Shown one piece after another: positions 10,689 to 43,756 of a stretch of 64,000 bases of DNA. The notes beneath the pieces were generated by a model. The model saw only the letters and a program-made list of their open reading frames with translations. It did not search any database and was not told the DNA's origin. Source of the stretch: Escherichia coli (GTDB lineage Bacteria; Pseudomonadota; Gammaproteobacteria; Enterobacterales; Enterobacteriaceae); the NCBI RefSeq assembly GCF_003790525.1, contig NZ_CP033635.1, one strand, 5' to 3'. A program made the position numbers and the translations under genes. The stretch's first letter is position 1, and every line of letters starts with the position of its first letter.

Positions 10689-11459
10689 TTAAATGACTTT
10701 GCGAAGATTTTCAGCAAATGCGGCGATCTGTTCTTCGCCGTCGCCTTCAATCACGATGCGCTGACGCTCGCGCTGTTTCGGCGCGGCAACCTGTTGTTCT
10801 GACCAGGCTGCCTCTGCGTTAAAACCGATATCCGCCGCCGACCATACCTGGACTGGCTTTTTCGCCGCGCCGAGAATGGCTTTCATCGAAGGAATTTGTG
10901 GGGAGTTGATATCAGTGGAAACAGCAACAACCGCAGGCAGCGGAATGCTTAAGGTTTCGGTTTCATCTTCCAGTTCGCGCTCAACGGTGAGGGTATCTGC
11001 CGTCAGGGAGATAATTTTGCTGACGCCGTTAACTGCCGGAATATTGAGGATTTCGCCTACCAGCAAACCAACCTGCTGGGCATAAAGGTCGGAAGAACCA
11101 TCGCCACAGAGGATCAAATCAAAGCCTGCTTTCTGGGCGGCGGCAGCCAGTGCGCTCGCCGTTTGTTGCGGCAGTGCCTGCTCGAACTGGTCATCAATCA
11201 CCACAATCAGTTCATCCGGACCGCGCGATAGCACATCTTTACGCCCTTTGGCGTTGGTCAGGGCTTTTCCGCCCACACTTAAGGCCGTCACCTGCCCCTC
11301 TGCTGCCTGTTGCTTTAGCTGGCAAGCCGCTTCAATAGCGTTGAGATCGTATTGGCTTATTTTGGCATCGGCTTTACTGAAGTCTAACGAACCATCAGCA
11401 TTATTGACCGCAATATCCTGTTCATCAGGCACGCACTTATAGCAAGTAATAATCTTCAT
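10689..11459 (-). CDS. fixA: Electron transfer flavoprotein beta subunit FixA
   Basis: Track ORF trimmed to [18 protein letters not shown]..., 256 aa ETF beta-like. Confidence 0.9.
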
Positions 11460-11553
11460 TGCATCTCCAGAAATCATGAAGGAAACGTCGTTCATATCGG
11501 TGGTGTTAATTACAGATATCACGCCCTTTAATTCGGAAATAAAACTTTAATCA

Positions 11554-11681
11554 CCAATATTGAAAATGTCACACGCAGATAAATCCAACTTTCAATATTG
11601 TTAAGCTCCTCACCAATATTGAAAACATGGCGTAGCAAAAAGAAATTTTCAATATTGTTTTATGGATCACCAATATTGAAA
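11554..11681. promoter_or_regulatory. Divergent cai/fix control region with two CaiF-type operators (inverted half-sites TTCAATATTG / CAATATTGAA separated by 13 bp) plus one extra half-site
   Basis: Half-sites at 11591-11600/11614-11623 and 11648-11657/11671-11680 with exactly 13-bp spacers; additional lone CAATATTGAA at 11554-11563; matches the published description of CaiF sites as inverted repeats separated by 13 bp. Confidence 0.5.
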
Positions 11682-11928
11682 GTCAGATGCTATTTTTTTA
11701 CTCACAATCAAACTCATCACATTGATAAACAATGAATATTTACACAAAAACGCCCTGTTTTTACCCGATAAAAAACTGTGACTAACATCACAGAATGCAG
11801 CCAATTGAATACCCATTATGAGTTAGCCATTAACGCGTCCACGAGGTTAATAATAATTATATTAAATGTTAACAAAAATAAAACAAACGGGAACGCAAAA
11901 TAAATATTCGTTTTCACAGTGGAATTAA

Positions 11929-13446
<1,518 letters not shown>

Positions 13447-23095: not shown

Positions 23096-24244
23096 TTACT
23101 TAGCGGTTTTACGGTACTGCTCAATTAACTCGATAAAGTGGTCGAACAACGGCGCGGCGTCGTGTGGACCAGGGCTGGCTTCCGGGTGACCCTGGAAGCT
23201 GAACGCCGGTTTATCGGTGCGATGAATGCCCTGTAACGTACCGTCGAACAGGGATTTATGCGTGACACGCAGGTTTGCAGGTAATGTTGCTTCATCCACC
23301 GCAAAACCGTGGTTCTGGGCGGTGATCATCACCACGTTTTTCTCAACATCTTTAACCGGATGGTTGCCGCCGTGGTGACCAAATTTCATTTTGACAGTCT
23401 TCGCACCGCTCGCCAGCGCCAGCAGCTGATGACCGAGGCAGATGCCGAATACCGGAATATCGGTTTCGAGGAATTTCTGGATGGCGGTAATGGCGTAATC
23501 GCATGGGGCCGGGTCGCCAGGGCCGTTGGAGAGGAAGATGCCGTCTGGATTCATTTTCAACACATCTTCCGCAGAAGTTTGCGCCGGAACGATAGTCAGA
23601 CGACAGCCTCTGTCCACCAACATGCGCAGGATGTTGCGCTTGGCACCAAAATCATAAGCCACAACATGGAACGGCAGCTCGTCTTCTTTCTTCGCTTCTG
23701 GCAGGCCGCCGGTCAGCGTCCAGCTCCCTTGTGTCCAGCTATACGTTTCTGCGGTGGTCACTTCTTTTGCCAGATCCATGCCGTTCAGACCTGGGAACGC
23801 GCGGGCTTTTTCTAACGCCAGCGCCGCATCCGGGTTATCGCCCGCGATAATGCAGCCATTCTGTGCGCCTTTCTCGCGCAGTAAACGCGTCAGCTTACGG
23901 GTATCGATATCGGCAATCGCCACGATGTTATGGCGCTTCAGGTAAGAAGAGAGGTCTTCGGTATTACGGAAGTTGCTGGCAATCAGCGGCAGGTCGCGAA
24001 TCACCAGACCTTGTGCATGTACCTGAGAAGATTCTTCATCGGCGTCATTAGTGCCGACATTGCCAATATGGGGATAAGTAAGAGTAACGATTTGACGAGA
24101 ATAGGAAGGATCAGTGAGGATTTCTTGATAACCGGTCATTGAAGTATTGAAAACGACTTCCCCAACCGCCGAACCTGTTGCCCCTATGGCCCGACCGTGA
24201 AACTGGGTTCCGTCTTCCAGAACCAATAGCGCTGACTTAATCAA
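23096..24244 (-). CDS. carA: Carbamoyl-phosphate synthase small (glutaminase) subunit
   Basis: Conserved protein starts (L->M)[20 protein letters not shown] at a TTG codon (known unusual carA start); 382 aa; 17 nt upstream of carB. Confidence 0.95.
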
Positions 24245-33450: not shown

Positions 33451-34824
33451 ATGAGTTCCGTCATTGAAACTACTCAATCAACTTCATCCGATTCCTTACC
33501 TTTAATACAGCGGATTAGCTACGGCTCACTGGATGTTGCCGGTAATCTGCTCTACTGTTTTGGCTCTACCTACATTCTTTATTTCTACACCGACGTAGCA
33601 GGGATTAGTCTGGCGGTTGCAGGCATAATCCTACTGCTGGCGCGCATTGTAGACGGTATTGATGCGCCAGTGTGGGGAATCATTATCGATAAAACCCATT
33701 CGCGTTATGGAAAATGCCGTCCATGGTTTTTATGGTTACCATTACCTTTTGCTGTATTTAGTGCGCTTTCTTTCTGGTCACCCGATATCAGCATGACAGG
33801 GAAAGCTGTTTATGCAGCAATATCGTACATGTTAGCCAGCATTCTGTTCACTGGGTTGAATACACCATTAAGCGCTATATTACCGCTGATGACGCTGTCA
33901 CCAAAGGAACGCCTGGTATTAAACTCATATCGCATGACTGGTGGGCAAATTGGCGTACTATTAATGAATGCGACAGCATTGCCATTGGTCGCTTTCCTTG
34001 GTAATGGTAACGATAAAGCAGGCTTTATATATACTGCCATAGTCTTTGCCGTAATATCCTGTGCCTTAACGTTGTTTGCCTTTAAAAATATTCGCGAACT
34101 GGATACCGATAAAATACAGCAAGAACCACGACTGCCGATGAAAAAGAGTTTTTCGGCAATGAAAGGGAACTGGCCGTGGCTCCTGATGGTAGTGGCGAAC
34201 CTTATCTTCTGGATTGCCCTACAGCAGCGCAACACTACTATTGTTTACTATTTAACCTACAATCTGGATCGCAAAGATCTGGTCCCGCTGGTTAACAGCC
34301 TCGCCACCATTCAGATCCTGTTTATCATTGCCATTCCGTTCTTCAGTCGCTATCTCACCAAAACCTGGATTTGGATTACCGGGCTGCTGGTTGCGATGTT
34401 AGGCGGGGGCCTCATGTGGCTGGCTGCCGACAGCATCCCTTTGATGATCGCCGCCTGGGTACTCGCCAATATCGGCAGCGGTATCGCCTGTTCTATGCCT
34501 TTCGCGATGCTCGGTTTCGCCGTTGACTTTGGTCGCTGGAAAACCGGCATTAAAGCTACCGGCATTCTGATCGCCTTCGGCAGCACCTTCTGCATCAAGA
34601 TGGGCAGTGGTATCGGTACAGCTTTCGCTGCCTTTATTATGGACAGCTTTGGTTATATCCCCAACCAACAACAGACGGCTGCGGGGTTGGAAGGTATCAG
34701 CCTGGCATTTATCTGGGTCCCTGCGCTGCTCTTTGCTCTCGCGGCTGTACCACTGCTCTTCTTTCGCCAGTATGAAGCGATGGAAGGTCGTATCCAACAC
34801 GATCTGCAAGCCCACAATCGTTGA
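33451..34824 (+). CDS. Glycoside-pentoside-hexuronide (GPH) family cation symporter (MelB/YicJ/YihO-like), accessory
   Basis: 457 aa, 12-TM-like; N-terminal GPH signature YGSLDVAGN...YFYTDVAGISLAVAGIILLLARIVDGIDAPVWGIIIDKTHSRYGKCRPW; RBS GGAGAG upstream. Confidence 0.85.
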   Translation: MSSVIETTQSTSSDSLPLIQRISYGSLDVAGNLLYCFGSTYILYFYTDVAGISLAVAGIILLLARIVDGIDAPVWGIIIDKTHSRYGKCRPWFLWLPLPFAVFSALSFWSPDISMTGKAVYAAISYMLASILFTGLNTPLSAILPLMTLSPKERLVLNSYRMTGGQIGVLLMNATALPLVAFLGNGNDKAGFIYTAIVFAVISCALTLFAFKNIRELDTDKIQQEPRLPMKKSFSAMKGNWPWLLMVVANLIFWIALQQRNTTIVYYLTYNLDRKDLVPLVNSLATIQILFIIAIPFFSRYLTKTWIWITGLLVAMLGGGLMWLAADSIPLMIAAWVLANIGSGIACSMPFAMLGFAVDFGRWKTGIKATGILIAFGSTFCIKMGSGIGTAFAAFIMDSFGYIPNQQQTAAGLEGISLAFIWVPALLFALAAVPLLFFRQYEAMEGRIQHDLQAHNR

Positions 34825-34863
34825 ATTTAATCAACATGCCACTTGCTCCTGGGAGGAACAATT

Positions 34864-36903
34864 ATGTCGTTTATTAAGCAAGATCCCCACCGTCTGGTCT
34901 GGCAACAAGACGATCGTTATCTCTGGATTGAAGCCTGGGGCGAAAACAGCTTACGCGTGCGAAGCGGCCGCCATTTACCGGTAATGCGCAATGAAAACTG
35001 GGCGTTAACTCAGGATCCTGGCGATGCTGTCGCTCATATCACCTGGGATGAAAAACAGGCAACGCTGAGAAATGGTAAAATCACTGCCATCGTAAATCTT
35101 CAGGGCCAGCTCTCTTTCTGGCGTAATGATGATAAATGCCTGCTGCAAGAGTTCTGGCGTCAACGTGGCGAAATTGGTGAAGATGAGTCAGCACACGGCC
35201 AATATGTGAGCGCTCTTAATCTACAGGCCCGTGAATTCAAGCCTATTCCTGGCGGGAAATTTACGATTAAGGCACGATTTGAAGCCAACGATGGCGAGAA
35301 ACTCTTTGGCATGGGTCAGTATCAGCAACCAAACCTGGATTTAAAAGGTTGCATGCTGGAGCTGGCACAACGTAACTCGCAGGCTTCTGTTCCCTTCCTG
35401 CTATCAAATCAGGGTTATGGTTTTCTGTGGAATAACCCAGCAATTGGCCGCGTCACCTTCGCGCAAAACGGTACGGAATGGGTAGCAGAAGTCAGTGAAC
35501 AACTGGACTACTGGATCACTGCGGGCGATACTCCGGCTGAGATCAGTGAAGCCTATGCACGAGTAACCGGTACGCCACCGATGATGCCTGATTACGCAAT
35601 GGGGTTCTGGCAATGCAAGCTTCGCTATCGTAATCAACAAGAATTGTTAGAAGTCGCACGCGGCTACAAGCAACGCAATCTTCCGATCTCGGTGATTGTC
35701 ATCGATTTCTTCCATTGGCCGAATCAGGGTGACTGGATGTTCGATCTGCGTGACTGGCCCGATCCCGATGCGATGATCGCCGAATTAAAAGAAATGGGTA
35801 TCGAACTGATGGTTTCATTCTGGCCTACCGTAGATAACCGTACCGAGAGTTATCGGGAGATGAAAGAAAACGGCTGGCTAGTCCACACCGAGCGTGGTTT
35901 GCCTATCAATATGGATTTCCTTGGCAACACCACGTTCTTTGATGCGACACATCCTGGCGCACGGGAATATGTCTGGAACAAAGCCAAACGCAATTATTAC
36001 GATAAAGGCGTGAAACTGTTCTGGCTGGATGAAGCCGAGCCAGAGTTCGGTGTTTACGATTATGACAACTATCGTTACTACGCAGGGCCAGTGCTGGAAG
36101 TCGGTAATATCTATCCGCGTATGTACGCCAAAACGTTCTTCGATGGCATGCAGGCAGCCGGAGAAAAGCAGGTGATCAATTTGCTACGCTGCGCCTGGGC
36201 CGGTAGTCAGAAATATGGTGCCCTGGTGTGGTCAGGCGATATCCACTCCTCCTTCCGTTCTCTGCGCAATCAGTTTGCTGCGGGGCTGAACATGGGAATT
36301 GCCGGGATCCCGTGGTGGACGACGGATATTGGCGGTTTCCACGGTGGCAACATACATGATCCAAAATTTCATGAACTGCTTATTCGCTGGTTCCAGTGGG
36401 GGGTATTCAGCCCAGTAATGCGTTTACATGGCAACCGCGACCCGCAAGTTTTGCCTGAACAACCCTATCGTGATGGCATCGCACAATGTCCGACTGGCGC
36501 GCCGAATGAAGTCTGGAGCTATGGTGAAGAAACCGGTGAAATTCTCACTTCCTGCCTGCAGTTGCGTGAGAAGCTGAAACCTTATATCAGTAAAATTATG
36601 GCTGAGACGCACGAGAAGAACAGCCCGGTAATGCGCACGATGTTCTTTGAGTTTCCAGACCAGGCAGAAAGCTGGAATATTTATGATCAGTACTGCTTTG
36701 GCCCGGACCTTCTCGTTGCCCCTGTAATGCACGAAGGTACACGTTCACGTGATGTCTGGTTGCCTGCCGGAGAGACATGGATCGATTTTTATACCCATGA
36801 ACACTACGCGGGTGGGCAAAAGCTTCATCATTGCGCGCCGCTGCACCAGATACCGGTATTCATTCGTGAGAAAGGGAAATATCGCCAGTTATTACCCGTT
36901 TAA
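34864..36903 (+). CDS. Glycoside hydrolase family 31 enzyme (alpha-xylosidase/alpha-glucosidase/sulfoquinovosidase-like), accessory
   Basis: Track ORF trimmed to ATG at 34864 (RBS GGGAGG); 679 aa; GH31-like motifs around FWLDEAEPE (putative nucleophile Asp) and WSGDIHS (putative acid/base Asp); paired with GPH transporter as in yicJI / yihOPQ. Confidence 0.8.
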   Translation: MSFIKQDPHRLVWQQDDRYLWIEAWGENSLRVRSGRHLPVMRNENWALTQDPGDAVAHITWDEKQATLRNGKITAIVNLQGQLSFWRNDDKCLLQEFWRQRGEIGEDESAHGQYVSALNLQAREFKPIPGGKFTIKARFEANDGEKLFGMGQYQQPNLDLKGCMLELAQRNSQASVPFLLSNQGYGFLWNNPAIGRVTFAQNGTEWVAEVSEQLDYWITAGDTPAEISEAYARVTGTPPMMPDYAMGFWQCKLRYRNQQELLEVARGYKQRNLPISVIVIDFFHWPNQGDWMFDLRDWPDPDAMIAELKEMGIELMVSFWPTVDNRTESYREMKENGWLVHTERGLPINMDFLGNTTFFDATHPGAREYVWNKAKRNYYDKGVKLFWLDEAEPEFGVYDYDNYRYYAGPVLEVGNIYPRMYAKTFFDGMQAAGEKQVINLLRCAWAGSQKYGALVWSGDIHSSFRSLRNQFAAGLNMGIAGIPWWTTDIGGFHGGNIHDPKFHELLIRWFQWGVFSPVMRLHGNRDPQVLPEQPYRDGIAQCPTGAPNEVWSYGEETGEILTSCLQLREKLKPYISKIMAETHEKNSPVMRTMFFEFPDQAESWNIYDQYCFGPDLLVAPVMHEGTRSRDVWLPAGETWIDFYTHEHYAGGQKLHHCAPLHQIPVFIREKGKYRQLLPV

Positions 36904-39092: not shown

Positions 39093-39343
39093 TTTTTATT
39101 TCTCTTTCAGGTGAATAGATCGTTTTTACTATTTTACCCCGCACGAATCATCGTTAAAATCAGATTATAGTGTAGGAATAATTCGTTTTTTACGAACCAT
39201 TGAAGGATTTGTGCCATCAGCGATGAGATGATTTTTTGACGGCTGTAAGCGCTCACGAGTGACCCTAAGCCCTGATAATCATAGCTTAAGGTGAGGATTT
39301 CTGAGGGATTAATTAGGAAAAGTAATAATAAAATCGCACTGTG

Positions 39344-40588
39344 CTATAGCTGTTTATTCCAGAGATGCTTGAAAATATCTAATGTGGAGACAACATTGGC
39401 AGGCGACATTCGGTTTAATGAGGATAGAAAGGGATGAGACTCCAGGAAGTTGATAAAACGAGTCGCGCTTGCTAACGTCGAATACCGCATTTCATTTGCT
39501 TTCTTGTTTCCTGTAAGGTTACAAACAGCCATTGAATAATCACGGGCGGAAAATGTACGCCAAACATTATTTCTCACGCCACCACTCAAAAACAACCGCG
39601 GCGGCGTATCATAATGAGTCGTTTTCTCGCCGCGTTCTTTCACAAATGAAATATGGCACCGGCCTTGATGAATATGCTGTAAATTAGCCATCAGACAACC
39701 ACCTAATATAAAGCACTCGTGATCAAGGTAGTGTTGAATATTTATAGAATATGCTTCAGTCAGTGCTCTAACCAGTTCAAAATGGCGATACGCCGGAAGA
39801 ACCGGTTTCACCAACATCCCCGGATCGTTTTGATGTAATATCGCCCGACCATAATCAATATCAAATAAGGTATCACGCCGCATAGTAAGTAACTCCTTGC
39901 GTTGTACGTGATGCGCCAGTGTACCTGGAGACAAACGCTCTTCATAACTTGATGCATATTGATAATGCGACTCTACCGCTGATGGAGAATAATTTGTTGA
40001 AATAGCGACGACTCTACCGCTTTGTTCTTCTGCGGTAACAAGGCTATAAAGATAGTTATTACTACCGTTAAACTTTACGCGAAAAGCGCGGGTAGATAGA
40101 GAAATATCAGAAGCAGAAGAGTATTGGTAACTTTCTTTATAGTTTACTTCCCGGGCTAGTTTCATCAACTCACGGTTAAGCCCTGTGCTATTAAGAAGTA
40201 ATAATTTACGGATATCTGCAAGTGAAGCGCCTTGATCAATCATCAATGCTAAATGTGTTCTTCGCGGCGTTGTATTTACATGATCCAGAGTGATAAAAGT
40301 TCTGGAACAATGATGACAATACATTCTCCTCTGCCCCTGAGCTGAATAGCCATACTTTTTCAGAGATGTGCTTCCGCAAGCTGAACATTGTGGAACCAAC
40401 CCTCTCCATGAATGATTAACACGATTACGATAAATATTAAGAGATCGTTCAGATATCACAGGAAACAAGTAACCGCATTCCCGACATAAAATATTTTTTC
40501 CTTGTGCAATATAATCCTGGCTATTCAACAACCCCAGGTTTTTGCATCCTGGTGTTTTGCAACAATCAACATTTACGTTGGTAAACAT
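39344..40588 (-). CDS. Hypothetical protein with two N-terminal CxxC...CxxC zinc-ribbon motifs (IS1 InsA / transposase-type zinc finger-like), accessory
   Basis: Track ORF 39344-40624; preferred start at internal ATG 40588 preceded by AGGGAG RBS; motifs CKNLG...CRECG and CSACGSTSLKKYGYSAQGQRRMYCHHCSRTF resemble InsA CPSCSATDG...GHQRYLCSHCRKTW; very AT-rich. Confidence 0.6.
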   Translation of the reverse strand: MFTNVNVDCCKTPGCKNLGLLNSQDYIAQGKNILCRECGYLFPVISERSLNIYRNRVNHSWRGLVPQCSACGSTSLKKYGYSAQGQRRMYCHHCSRTFITLDHVNTTPRRTHLALMIDQGASLADIRKLLLLNSTGLNRELMKLAREVNYKESYQYSSASDISLSTRAFRVKFNGSNNYLYSLVTAEEQSGRVVAISTNYSPSAVESHYQYASSYEERLSPGTLAHHVQRKELLTMRRDTLFDIDYGRAILHQNDPGMLVKPVLPAYRHFELVRALTEAYSINIQHYLDHECFILGGCLMANLQHIHQGRCHISFVKERGEKTTHYDTPPRLFLSGGVRNNVWRTFSARDYSMAVCNLTGNKKANEMRYSTLASATRFINFLESHPFLSSLNRMSPANVVSTLDIFKHLWNKQL

Positions 40589-40717
40589 ATTCACTCCCTG
40601 CGAATACCCGGATATTATCGTCATATGTCAAAGAAAAGAACCTGACTCAATGTGTAACATTGAATCAGGCGGGCATGGCCCTGAAAGGCATACATTACAT
40701 TTATTATGGTTATCAGA

Positions 40718-42211
40718 TTAGCCCCAGGTTACCGCTTCCGGTTTATCACCTCTGGCTTTCATTAATGAATCATTATCAATATCGGCTTTATACTTTAAGA
40801 ACTTACCATACATTTGTTTTTCAATGTCTGGATTTTTACCTATCTGATTAATGGTCTCAAAACGATCGGTTTTGAGGTTGTATAGGTACTTTGGCTTATT
40901 GTTACGATCGATGATCATTTTCCAGTCACCATCACGTATCGCCCATTCGTCGGTTGGATCATCCTGGAATGGCATGTCAATTCCGAAGATTAATGGCTTT
41001 TCACGTTTTAGCGCTTTGTTCTCAAGGACAGGAACCAACGATTCGCCATCAAAAGTCCGGTCCGTCGGTAATTTGAAGTTCATCATTTTCGCCAGCGTAG
41101 GCATCCAGTCCAGACCATAAACAGGCGTATCTGAAACCATTCCCTTTGGAAGATGCTTTCCGTATTTAATAATCGCCGGAACACGGATGCCACCTTCCCA
41201 GAGATTATCCTTGCGACCACGTAATCCATCAGTTTCCCCTGCCAAATTCAGTTCATAAACTTTGCGCGCTTCACGCGTTACTGGTCCGTTATCACTGGTA
41301 AAAATAACGATGGTGTTATCTTCTTCACCCATCGCTTTGATTTTATCCAGTACTTTTCCAACCTGAGCATCCAGATAACTGATGTTGGCATAATATTCTC
41401 CTGTACCACGCCAGGGTTTATCCGCCCAGTCGCCATAAAATAAATCAGGATGCTGCTTCTGATAGTCGCTCATATATTGTGAGTACATGTCGAGGTATTT
41501 TTTGGGCGAAGCCAGGGGACTGTGCACTTCGGTAAAAGCGACATAAAGGAAGAAAGGCTTACTGTCCTTTTTGTTATCCAACCAGTTGACGACTTCCGAA
41601 CTGACATACTCACCACTCATTTTATCGGAACGTGGTGTGGGTTGCCCGTTACGCAACCAGCCCGTTGGATAGACCATGCCAAAACGGGGACGCTCCTTCG
41701 CATTATCCAGAGTAGCGTCGGTAACAAAACCCGCCGTATTAACCAGTGAGTAATCAAAGCCCATATCTTTTGCCTGCGGCTGATCGGTGCGATCGCCGCC
41801 TGCATTCAGATGCAGCTTACCCATCATGGCCGTGTCGTACCCTTGCGCTTTGAGTAGATTAGCAATCGTGAGTTCATTACGCCCTAATGCCACATCTTTT
41901 CCCGTTGGGATCCATGAGCGTATGCCGGTACGAAATGGCATCCGCCCTGTTAATAGTCCCGCCCGTGAAGGAGAACTTAAGGGGGCAGGTGCATAATAGT
42001 CGGTAAATTTGACGCCTTCCTGGGCAAGCCTGTCTATATTGGGCGTTTTAACGATCTGATGTCCATATGTTGCCAAATCACCATAGCCTAAATCATCCGC
42101 CATAATGATGACTAAATTGGGTTGTTTAGTTTCGGCGGCTACGGCTGGATTAAAAGCATTCCCTGTGCAAACTGCAAGGCCGATCAAACTGGCCATTAAT
42201 GTTTTCTGCAT
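40718..42211 (-). CDS. Secreted Ser-type sulfatase (arylsulfatase A family), accessory
   Basis: Track ORF trimmed to MQKTLMASLIGLAVCTGNAFNPAVAA (signal peptide); IIMADDLGYGDL and sulfatase signature LSSPSRAGLLTGR with Ser in place of the formylglycine-precursor Cys. Confidence 0.85.
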   Translation of the reverse strand: MQKTLMASLIGLAVCTGNAFNPAVAAETKQPNLVIIMADDLGYGDLATYGHQIVKTPNIDRLAQEGVKFTDYYAPAPLSSPSRAGLLTGRMPFRTGIRSWIPTGKDVALGRNELTIANLLKAQGYDTAMMGKLHLNAGGDRTDQPQAKDMGFDYSLVNTAGFVTDATLDNAKERPRFGMVYPTGWLRNGQPTPRSDKMSGEYVSSEVVNWLDNKKDSKPFFLYVAFTEVHSPLASPKKYLDMYSQYMSDYQKQHPDLFYGDWADKPWRGTGEYYANISYLDAQVGKVLDKIKAMGEEDNTIVIFTSDNGPVTREARKVYELNLAGETDGLRGRKDNLWEGGIRVPAIIKYGKHLPKGMVSDTPVYGLDWMPTLAKMMNFKLPTDRTFDGESLVPVLENKALKREKPLIFGIDMPFQDDPTDEWAIRDGDWKMIIDRNNKPKYLYNLKTDRFETINQIGKNPDIEKQMYGKFLKYKADIDNDSLMKARGDKPEAVTWG

Positions 42212-42230
42212 AATTATTCCCTGATGAAAA

Positions 42231-42992
42231 TTAGAAATCATAACCAAGCATATAAATCATTTGATCGCCAAAACCATCGTAGCCCAACTTATTATCGAAA
42301 TAACGCCACGTCACACTGGCTTTCCAGCGAGGATAGAACTTCCAGGCCACTGTTAAACCGCCATTTAGCCCATTCCGACCAAATTGTTGTTCCGCATAGG
42401 CATCATTTCTGTCCAGTTCTATTTCATTCCAGTTAGATAAAACAAATTTTTCGTCAAATAACGTAAAAGGTAATACTGCTGTCCAGCCAACAACATAACC
42501 ATTCCAGCCATTTGTTTGTCCATATTTGGCTGAGACGTAGTCTCCAGATTGATTATGTAATCCAATATACGGTTTAAAAAACCCCCATGAACCATTCCAG
42601 CCGAGGTAGCCCAAACCATAAAACATATCAAGATCGTCACCCCATGAGTTATCCCATTGACCATAGATCTTGCCAAAGAAAGTCATATTGGAGTCAAAGA
42701 GTCTGACATGTGTCATAGCAGAAACGGTATGATTACGCCCCGCTACGGCATGGTTAAGCACATTGCTTTCATAAAATGAGTAAAACTCGGCTTCTTTAAA
42801 ATTCACACCAAAGTCTGCAGTCACTTTCCATACTTCACCACGATGAGTGTTAACGAAGCCACTATTCCAGTCAGCATAACCTGCATTTATTGAGCCAAAG
42901 GAACCTTTATATTCTAATGAAGAATATGCAGGAAGGTGATAGAAAATCGTTGTCAGGGCACACGCAATAAGAAGCCGTCTTTTGGCAGACAT
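42231..42992 (-). CDS. Tsx-family outer membrane channel protein, accessory
   Basis: 253 aa with signal peptide, aromatic-rich beta-barrel-like sequence ending ...MIYMLGYDF (compare Tsx C-terminus ...VVGYNF); RBS GGAGAG; 19 nt upstream of sulfatase gene. Confidence 0.7.
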   Translation of the reverse strand: MSAKRRLLIACALTTIFYHLPAYSSLEYKGSFGSINAGYADWNSGFVNTHRGEVWKVTADFGVNFKEAEFYSFYESNVLNHAVAGRNHTVSAMTHVRLFDSNMTFFGKIYGQWDNSWGDDLDMFYGLGYLGWNGSWGFFKPYIGLHNQSGDYVSAKYGQTNGWNGYVVGWTAVLPFTLFDEKFVLSNWNEIELDRNDAYAEQQFGRNGLNGGLTVAWKFYPRWKASVTWRYFDNKLGYDGFGDQMIYMLGYDF

Positions 42993-43500
42993 ATAATATG
43001 CTCTCCATTCATTTTTTTTATGGTTCCATAGAAATCAATACATCAGATAATTCATTTTGATTAAGAACGACTCAGAAAGTATATTTAAAGGTGAATGGCA
43101 AAGCGTGATGGAGATCGCAGATTACTTTTACCCCCGGGTGTGGAGGTATCGTGTTTCAAAAAGTGTGTCGATTTTAAATATCACTCATTGATTTATAAAC
43201 ATTTTTCCTCACAAAAAGAAAATTCAATTCTGTACAAGAATATTTTGTATCTTCTATTACTTTCTCCAGTAATAACTCACCATTCAGGCATAACTTAAAC
43301 CTCTTGTTCATAATCTCAACTTTTGTAAATGAAAACGCACATAAGAGTTAAAATAAACAATGTACTAAAGATTGATTACGCAAAAATGCGAGGCGTCTTC
43401 AGGATTAGAATCGATAAAACAGAATGGGTTAAAGAGAGCGATATAATAGCGGCGGGTGCTTGAGGCTGTCTGTCTCAGGCATTAGCTGAACGGCAGATAG

Positions 43501-43555
43501 AGAAAAGCCCCGAGTGATATTTTACCATCAACCCGAGGCCCCCTATATGCAGAAC
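43501..43555 (-). ncRNA. sokC: sokC antisense RNA (position inferred from K-12 hokC/sokC geometry)
   Basis: Placed by conserved offset relative to the mokC start; antisense to the mokC 5' region; boundaries approximate. Confidence 0.35.
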
Positions 43556-43756
43556 ACATGTAGAGTGCCTCTTACTGACCGTAAGGTCAAGGAGAAGAGA
43601 GCAATGAAGCAGCATAAGGCGATGATTGTCGCCCTGATCGTCATCTGTATCACCGCCGTAGTGGCGGCGCTGGTAACGAGAAAAGACCTCTGTGAGGTTC
43701 ACATCCGAACTGGCCAGACGGAGGTTGCTGTTTTCACGGCTTACGAATCCGAGTAA
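43547..43756 (+). CDS. mokC: MokC, overlapping regulatory reading frame of the hokC toxin locus
   Basis: 69-codon frame MQNTCRVPLTDRKVKEKRA-MKQHKA... co-terminal with hokC. Confidence 0.65.
   Translation: MQNTCRVPLTDRKVKEKRAMKQHKAMIVALIVICITAVVAALVTRKDLCEVHIRTGQTEVAVFTAYESE
43604..43756 (+). CDS. hokC: Type I toxin HokC (Gef)
   Basis: 50 aa MKQHKAMIVALIVICITAVVAALVTRKDLCEVHIRTGQTEVAVFTAYESE recognised as Hok/Gef family toxin. Confidence 0.9.
   Translation: MKQHKAMIVALIVICITAVVAALVTRKDLCEVHIRTGQTEVAVFTAYESE

Follow-up and report, generated by a model that had tools for sequence, protein, structure and literature searches.

The locus considered here raises the question of whether, and how, a Ser-type sulfatase of Escherichia coli is matured when no radical-SAM maturase gene accompanies it. 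The enzyme is encoded on the minus strand at positions 40718-42211 of the window (the whole stretch of E. coli DNA that was analysed, 64,000 nucleotides), in an ORF of 497 aa plus stop that RefSeq labels 'sulfatase family protein' (WP_001173013.1). The Pfam Sulfatase domain (PF00884) matched residues 31-378 with an E-value of 5e-59, and the N-terminus, read by eye, presented a hydrophobic Sec-type signal peptide (residues 1 to ~26) devoid of a twin-arginine motif. The sulfatase signature reads P-L-S79-S-P-S-R83-A-G-L-L-T-G-R and fits the S1 pattern (C/S)-x-P-x-R-xxx-L-T-G-R; by sequence and ortholog alignment, the codon AGT at 41975-41977 (minus strand) places Ser79 at the formylglycine position. 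Residues D39, D40, R83, K132, H134, H230, D307, N308 and K334 were invariant among 19 aligned orthologs, and we assume their metal-binding and catalytic roles by motif analogy to human ARSA. Judged by its sequence, signature and catalytic residues, the island protein is a bona fide S1 sulfatase. The sequence-only reading of this DNA had called Ser, not Cys, at the critical position, and it was right: the codon at 41977-41975 is AGT, and Ser is also found in the sequence of the PDB entry 3ED4. A misreading or a strain-specific mutation was ruled out by that PDB sequence and by the AGT codon in all the Escherichia copies. Since a chance expectation is not definable for a single motif in a homologous enzyme, the weight of this observation rests on the fixation of Ser in the sampled Escherichia copies.

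A PDB search with the sulfatase returned 84 sulfatase sequences at E<1e-5. Entry 3ED4 ('arylsulfatase from E. coli', NYSGXRC, unpublished) was essentially identical (E=0), and steryl-sulfatase, GalNAc-6-sulfatase, carrageenan sulfatases and ARSA followed with similar scores (E ~1e-50), which pointed to no particular substrate or SulfAtlas subfamily. 3ED4 is the same protein, represented by the CFT073 allele (1 mismatch); it differs from the window protein at ~20 positions over residues 6-497 (~96% identity) and has Ser at the same position. In the literature searched, we found no published analysis of the function, substrate or maturation of 3ED4; queries with the CFT073 locus tags gave unrelated metabolomics papers alone, and those with aslA, ydeN and yidJ gave no relevant results. 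The 3ED4 protein, a CFT073 allele made in E. coli, has been grouped with mutant sulfatases lacking the metal-sulfate contact (PMC9063841), a placement suggesting that the crystal may contain Ser in its unmodified form. A Ser-type enzyme without a private maturase explains why this protein may have crystallised unmodified.

The sulfatase is part of a three-gene island on the minus strand (39333-43374) between sokC/hokC and nhaA; its limits come from a blastn comparison of the window with the K-12 locus (L036). In K-12 the island is missing, and ~113 bp replace window positions 39333-43374. The minus-strand gene order is dnaK, dnaJ, channel gene, sulfatase, Cys-rich gene, nhaA and nhaR, with hokC/mokC/sokC on the plus strand between dnaJ and the channel gene. 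The latter (42231-42992, minus strand) encodes a 253-aa outer-membrane channel of the Tsx/OmpK family (RefSeq 'outer membrane protein OmpK'; Pfam Channel_Tsx PF03502, E 1e-13) and is separated from the start of the downstream sulfatase by 19 bp, so that the two genes probably belong to the same operon. Of 21 orthologous loci, 14 have a same-strand channel gene directly before the sulfatase, five have a more divergent copy upstream in the opposite orientation, and two have none. The ompK-like gene is frameshifted in E. albertii (L022, 9178-9977) and in E. coli MFDS1022581 (L034, 2721-3480). A terminator-like hairpin with a 14-bp stem and a T-run (40640-40670, minus strand), recognised as a pattern match by a consensus scan and from the sequence, follows the sulfatase stop codon closely and precedes the transposase-like Cys-rich gene. 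In the Rfam scan of the island, sok alone was matched (116.9 bits), and the promoter scan of the island gave no excess over the shuffled expectation.

No maturase was encoded nearby. A six-frame scan of the 64 kb for CX3CX2C (stop-to-stop segments of at least 80 aa) found no match in or near the island, in agreement with the earlier claim that an adjacent radical-SAM maturase is lacking; the sole match in the window was an 84-aa frame at nt 23611, ~17 kb away. The sequence-only reading had also considered that an anaerobic sulfatase-maturating enzyme (anSME) just outside the island might have been misread; this candidate was ruled out across the whole window. The search of a complete genome for anSME genes, which the same reading had proposed, gave a positive result. 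The 4.2 kb around the sulfatase is 100% identical, in reverse orientation, to the chromosome of E. coli SMS-3-5 (NC_010498.1), in which aslA-aslB and ydeN-ydeM are intact and both maturases (aslB, 4262605-4263840; ydeM, 1671347-1672504) contain CX3CX2C. The nearest anSMEs are these two, aslB at a distance of ~0.82 Mb when the chromosome is treated as circular (4.25 Mb if record coordinates are used) and ydeM at ~1.65 Mb. In K-12, AslA (SSPTR) and YdeN (SGPSR) are Ser-type sulfatases whose neighbours AslB and YdeM carry CX3CX2C, and the partner sulfatases in SMS-3-5 read the same. At a coverage of at least 80%, aslB was present in 5424 and ydeM in 5334 of 5426 complete E. coli genomes. Thus, the island sulfatase shares its genome with two other Ser-type sulfatases and with the only anSMEs available, but AslA and YdeN are just 25-29% identical to it and each keeps its maturase next door.

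We compared this arrangement with orthologous loci, taking one genome per species, which yielded 21 loci that were nearly all at the dnaJ-nhaA position. All 18 non-Escherichia orthologs (Citrobacter, Salmonella arizonae/diarizonae, Klebsiella oxytoca/spallanzanii, Kluyvera, Phytobacter, Kosakonia, Atlantibacter, Franconibacter and Buttiauxella) carried Cys (TGT/TGC) at the formylglycine position, and 13 of these 18 loci presented a ~400-aa anSME ORF with CX3CX2C between the sulfatase and the Cys-rich gene. The C. braakii ORF, the one scanned against Pfam, matched Radical_SAM and SPASM. These island anSMEs constituted an orthologous group of their own, with 53-91% identity within the group and 43-49% and 41-46% identity to AslB and YdeM, respectively. 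The Cys-type module, as found in Citrobacter, Salmonella arizonae, Phytobacter, Kosakonia, Atlantibacter, Franconibacter and Buttiauxella, resembles the E. coli island in its location, its gene order and its channel, sulfatase (67-89% identity) and zinc-ribbon genes, and differs from it by the Cys and, in 13 of 18 loci, by the Radical_SAM/SPASM anSME. In contrast, Ser79 (AGT) was found in nine Escherichia copies representing four species and five diverged E. coli alleles, none of which had an anSME ORF (the named copies being E. coli SMS-3-5, CFT073, UTI89, MFDS1022581 and STEC719, E. albertii, E. whittamii and Escherichia sp. MOD1-EC7003).

Alignment to the C. braakii locus (L019) located the deletion junction at 40607-40629 (minus strand), where 23 nt stand in place of the ~1.2-kb radical-SAM/SPASM anSME gene. 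The E. coli intergenic segment aligned to L019 positions 11417-11582 and 12799-12905, and L019 ~11583-12798, essentially the whole anSME ORF, had no E. coli counterpart. By this alignment, the anSME gene is cleanly deleted in Escherichia. Since Cys is found in all the other genera and the anSME in 13 of the 18 loci, the Ser form without a maturase is the derived state, with a single origin in the Escherichia stem. The absence of a maturase beside a Ser-type sulfatase accordingly goes back to two changes in the ancestor of Escherichia, a switch from Cys to Ser and the deletion of the adjacent gene. As the switch and the loss amount to a single event, their link is beyond statistical test, and the coincidence of C79S with the anSME loss may be due to chance. 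In the literature searched, one combination appears to be undescribed, namely a Cys-to-Ser switch in one lineage that is accompanied by loss of the private maturase gene while purifying selection persists.

Some further differences were seen among these loci. The E. coli stretch around the 40640-40670 hairpin aligned, as a stretch, upstream of the anSME gene in the loci that keep it. The anSME was lost independently, with Cys kept, in K. oxytoca, Kluyvera intermedia, K. spallanzanii, Phytobacter massiliensis and S. diarizonae (L009, L010, L014, L015 and L023), and S. diarizonae lost the transposase-like gene too. In the C. amalonaticus assembly the sulfatase itself was split (L024, 9977-11505), which may be a sequencing error.

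Selection on the sulfatase was estimated from pairwise dN/dS. Values ranged from 0.020 to 0.033 among Escherichia species (dS up to 0.89) and from 0.022 to 0.055 among E. coli alleles (dS up to 0.61), in the same range as those of the Cys-type clade (0.016-0.085); inter-genus dS was saturated and left the NG86 values undefined. Just 12 residues were fixed specifically in Escherichia, four of them in the signal peptide, and only C79S and G193P affected positions that are invariant in other genera. Residue 193 (window 41633-41635) is Gly in all the other genera and Pro in all Escherichia. These data indicate, at the sequence level, that the Ser form is not decaying.

Our preferred explanation, to which we assign a probability of about 0.58, is that Ser79 is matured to formylglycine in trans by the core-genome AslB and/or YdeM, following the C-to-S change and the loss of the dedicated maturase. 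The periplasmic, Sec-exported sulfatase belongs to a conserved enterobacterial module, located between dnaJ/hokC and nhaA, whose other members are a Tsx/OmpK-like channel, a dedicated anSME and a transposase-derived zinc-ribbon protein. Two changes, in either order, took place in the ancestor shared by all Escherichia: a single T>A substitution converted TGT into AGT (Cys into Ser), and the radical-SAM maturase gene was excised cleanly. AslB and/or YdeM would then act in the cytoplasm on the still unfolded precursor, oxidising Ser79 to formylglycine prior to export, as is established for AtsB and AtsA. A small sulfated solute would cross the outer membrane via the Tsx-like channel and be desulfated in the periplasm. 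Because radical-SAM anSMEs are oxygen-sensitive, sulfatase activity would probably be confined to anaerobic growth. Maturation by AslB or YdeM had been one of three options offered by the sequence-only reading, and it is now the best supported: both genes are intact, near-universal and placed beside Ser-type sulfatases, and the orphan is under purifying selection, so that a Ser-type enzyme of this kind is most likely still matured. What that reading had taken as usual, a maturase encoded next door, was too strong, since a single anSME serves all 28 Bacteroides thetaiotaomicron sulfatases in trans (bioRxiv 10.1101/2020.11.20.392076) and non-adjacent maturases are therefore normal. Several Ser-type sulfatases are among those matured by this distant enzyme, which provides a precedent, but it comes from another phylum and concerns PUL-embedded carbohydrate sulfatases, and trans maturation was shown genetically there and is proposed here from genomic comparison. 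In addition, one study reports a Ser-type S1 sulfatase that was active when produced in E. coli with no maturase co-expressed (PMC8379841).

The classical system for comparison is AtsA/AtsB of Klebsiella pneumoniae. The island sulfatase resembles AtsA in the Ser at the formylglycine position, the Sec-type signal peptide and the S-x-P-x-R-xxx-L-T-G motif, and it presumably needs a radical-SAM anSME, which is available in the genome. It differs in that the adjacent maturase gene has been deleted and in that it represents another S1 lineage, AtsA being placed by its description and not by alignment. The E. coli sulfatase system is of an ordinary kind with a lineage-specific twist, and no new kind of system.

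Several points count against maturation in trans. Klebsiella AtsA reportedly needs co-expressed AtsB in E. coli. The five lineages that lack the anSME have kept Cys, the island is dispensable, and 3ED4 has been grouped with mutant sulfatases (PMC9063841). Moreover, in standard aerobic recombinant expression, E. coli is said to convert Cys only, not Ser (bioRxiv 10.1101/2020.11.20.392076).

A first rival is that Ser79 stays unconverted, acting as a weak nucleophile itself or leaving the protein with another hydrolytic or binding role that does not involve formylglycine. We consider this unlikely. In characterised S1 sulfatases, the activity of Cys/Ser-to-Ala or unmodified forms is lower by orders of magnitude. 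In the island protein, the entire S1 signature and all residues of formylglycine chemistry are invariant, the motif SSPSRAGLLTGR is a perfect anSME recognition signature, and the cell has two anSMEs at its disposal. On the other side, the strong purifying selection fits any retained function, and Escherichia carries, in G193P, a second change of its own at a site that does not vary elsewhere. The treatment of 3ED4 as similar to a non-matured variant (PMC9063841) is also consistent with an unconverted Ser. The Ser-type S1 sulfatase obtained from E. coli was likewise active after cell-free expression, for which its authors considered an intrinsic E. coli activity or proposed a formylglycine-free one (PMC8379841).

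A related and rather doubtful idea is that the Cys-to-Ser change was adaptive and not incidental, its stronger variant being function with an unmodified Ser nucleophile. If the change were adaptive, Ser would take the sulfatase off the oxygen-tolerant Cys-only route and make it depend exclusively on the oxygen-sensitive AslB/YdeM. Activity would then be gated post-translationally to the anaerobic gut, and the orphan would fit the substrate type of the remaining maturases.

Conversion of Ser79 by another, as yet unidentified E. coli maturation system, not AslB/YdeM, seems improbable. We know of no non-radical-SAM route from Ser to formylglycine, which counts against it. A third formylglycine-forming system of E. 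coli was proposed by Benjdia et al. 2007, as cited in PMC8379841 and PMC6189696, but the system is described for Cys-type substrates. The reported inability of E. coli to convert Ser (bioRxiv 10.1101/2020.11.20.392076) also argues against such a route.

We give equally little credence to a catalytically dead relic, which would correspond to the inactive enzyme of the sequence-only reading. C-to-S is a classic inactivating substitution at this residue, the cognate maturase is gone, and the island could be on its way out of E. coli: a 4.2-kb query spanning it was covered by at least 80% in 1271 of 5426 complete E. coli genomes, so that it is absent from ~77% of them, including K-12, and is dispensable. 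The ompK-like partner is, in addition, frameshifted in E. albertii and in one E. coli strain. However, the sulfatase ORF was intact in all nine Escherichia copies examined, dN/dS (0.02-0.05, with dS up to 0.9) was indistinguishable from that of the Cys-type clade, and the catalytic residues were invariant. Similarly, in a spread sample of the 1277 E. coli hits, all 59 full-length copies covered 100% of the query in one aligned piece under a sulfatase-named feature (pseudogene flags not being displayed). Pseudogenisation as the main reading was thus ruled out by dN/dS, and inactivity is disfavoured as a decay scenario.

The third gene of the island (39344-40588, minus strand) encodes a Cys-rich, transposase-derived protein of 414 aa, in which two zinc ribbons and an HTH region similar to that of IS1 InsA precede a C-terminal domain of RNase-H-like fold. 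As the earlier reading had seen, it carries CxxC pairs (C35/C38, C68/C71 and C91/C94) instead of a radical-SAM motif. Its N-terminal 4-Cys zinc-binding domain matched NF050000 with 31.8 bits (cutoff 28), C68, C71, C91 and C94 were invariant, and the cysteines correspond to zinc ribbons of the IS1/IS1595 type. The fold matches DDE transposases and integrases, and the first strand showed no invariant Asp. The gene was present in 19 of the 21 orthologous loci, with or without the anSME, which points to an ancestral, transposase-derived component of the module and not to a replacement maturase. Of the 13 loci with a dedicated anSME, 12 also have this gene (the 13th, L006, is truncated by a contig end within the anSME gene), and in most of the anSME-bearing loci its frame starts 4-12 bp from the end of the anSME ORF. 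The suggestion that this neighbour replaces the radical-SAM maturase, prompted by its adjacency, its cysteines and its conservation with the sulfatase, can practically be dismissed, being ruled out by the coexistence with the anSME, the IS1/IS1595-type zinc ribbons, the DDE-transposase-like fold and the lack of both a Radical_SAM, SPASM or FGE match in Pfam and a CX3CX2C motif. With its zinc ribbon, HTH and RNase-H-like fold, the protein looks like a domesticated transposase of the IS1/IS1595 type, and its role is most plausibly that of a DNA-binding regulator. Its vertical conservation at a single chromosomal locus extends over at least 10 genera.

The locus is of wider interest because E. 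coli is the standard host for sulfatase production and AslB and YdeM are only 'putative' maturases. The island represents a natural experiment, conserved in both forms, in which Cys with a private maturase in many genera can be set against Ser without one across Escherichia. The sulfatase, carried by B2/F strains (CFT073, UTI89, Nissle 1917 and SMS-3-5), is also a tractable substrate for asking whether AslB/YdeM act as Ser-type maturases in vivo.

Within E. coli, the island haplotypes were deeply diverged and mosaic. Between SMS-3-5 and CFT073, dS reached 0.61 for the sulfatase, 0.60 for the ompK-like gene and ~1.0 for the transposase-like gene, and was 0.11 for the flanking dnaJ. In UTI89, the ompK-like gene was similar to that of SMS-3-5 (dS 0.006) and the sulfatase was diverged. 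The high dS of the island together with the UTI89 mosaic implies old alleles and recombination inside the island. Two other elements of the region are worth recording: the type I toxin-antitoxin locus hokC/mokC/sokC (43454-43606 and 43514-43756, both on the plus strand), which adjoins the island on the dnaJ side, and a pair of genes for an MFS sugar transporter and a GH31 glycosidase (33451-36903, plus strand) between nhaR and rpsT.
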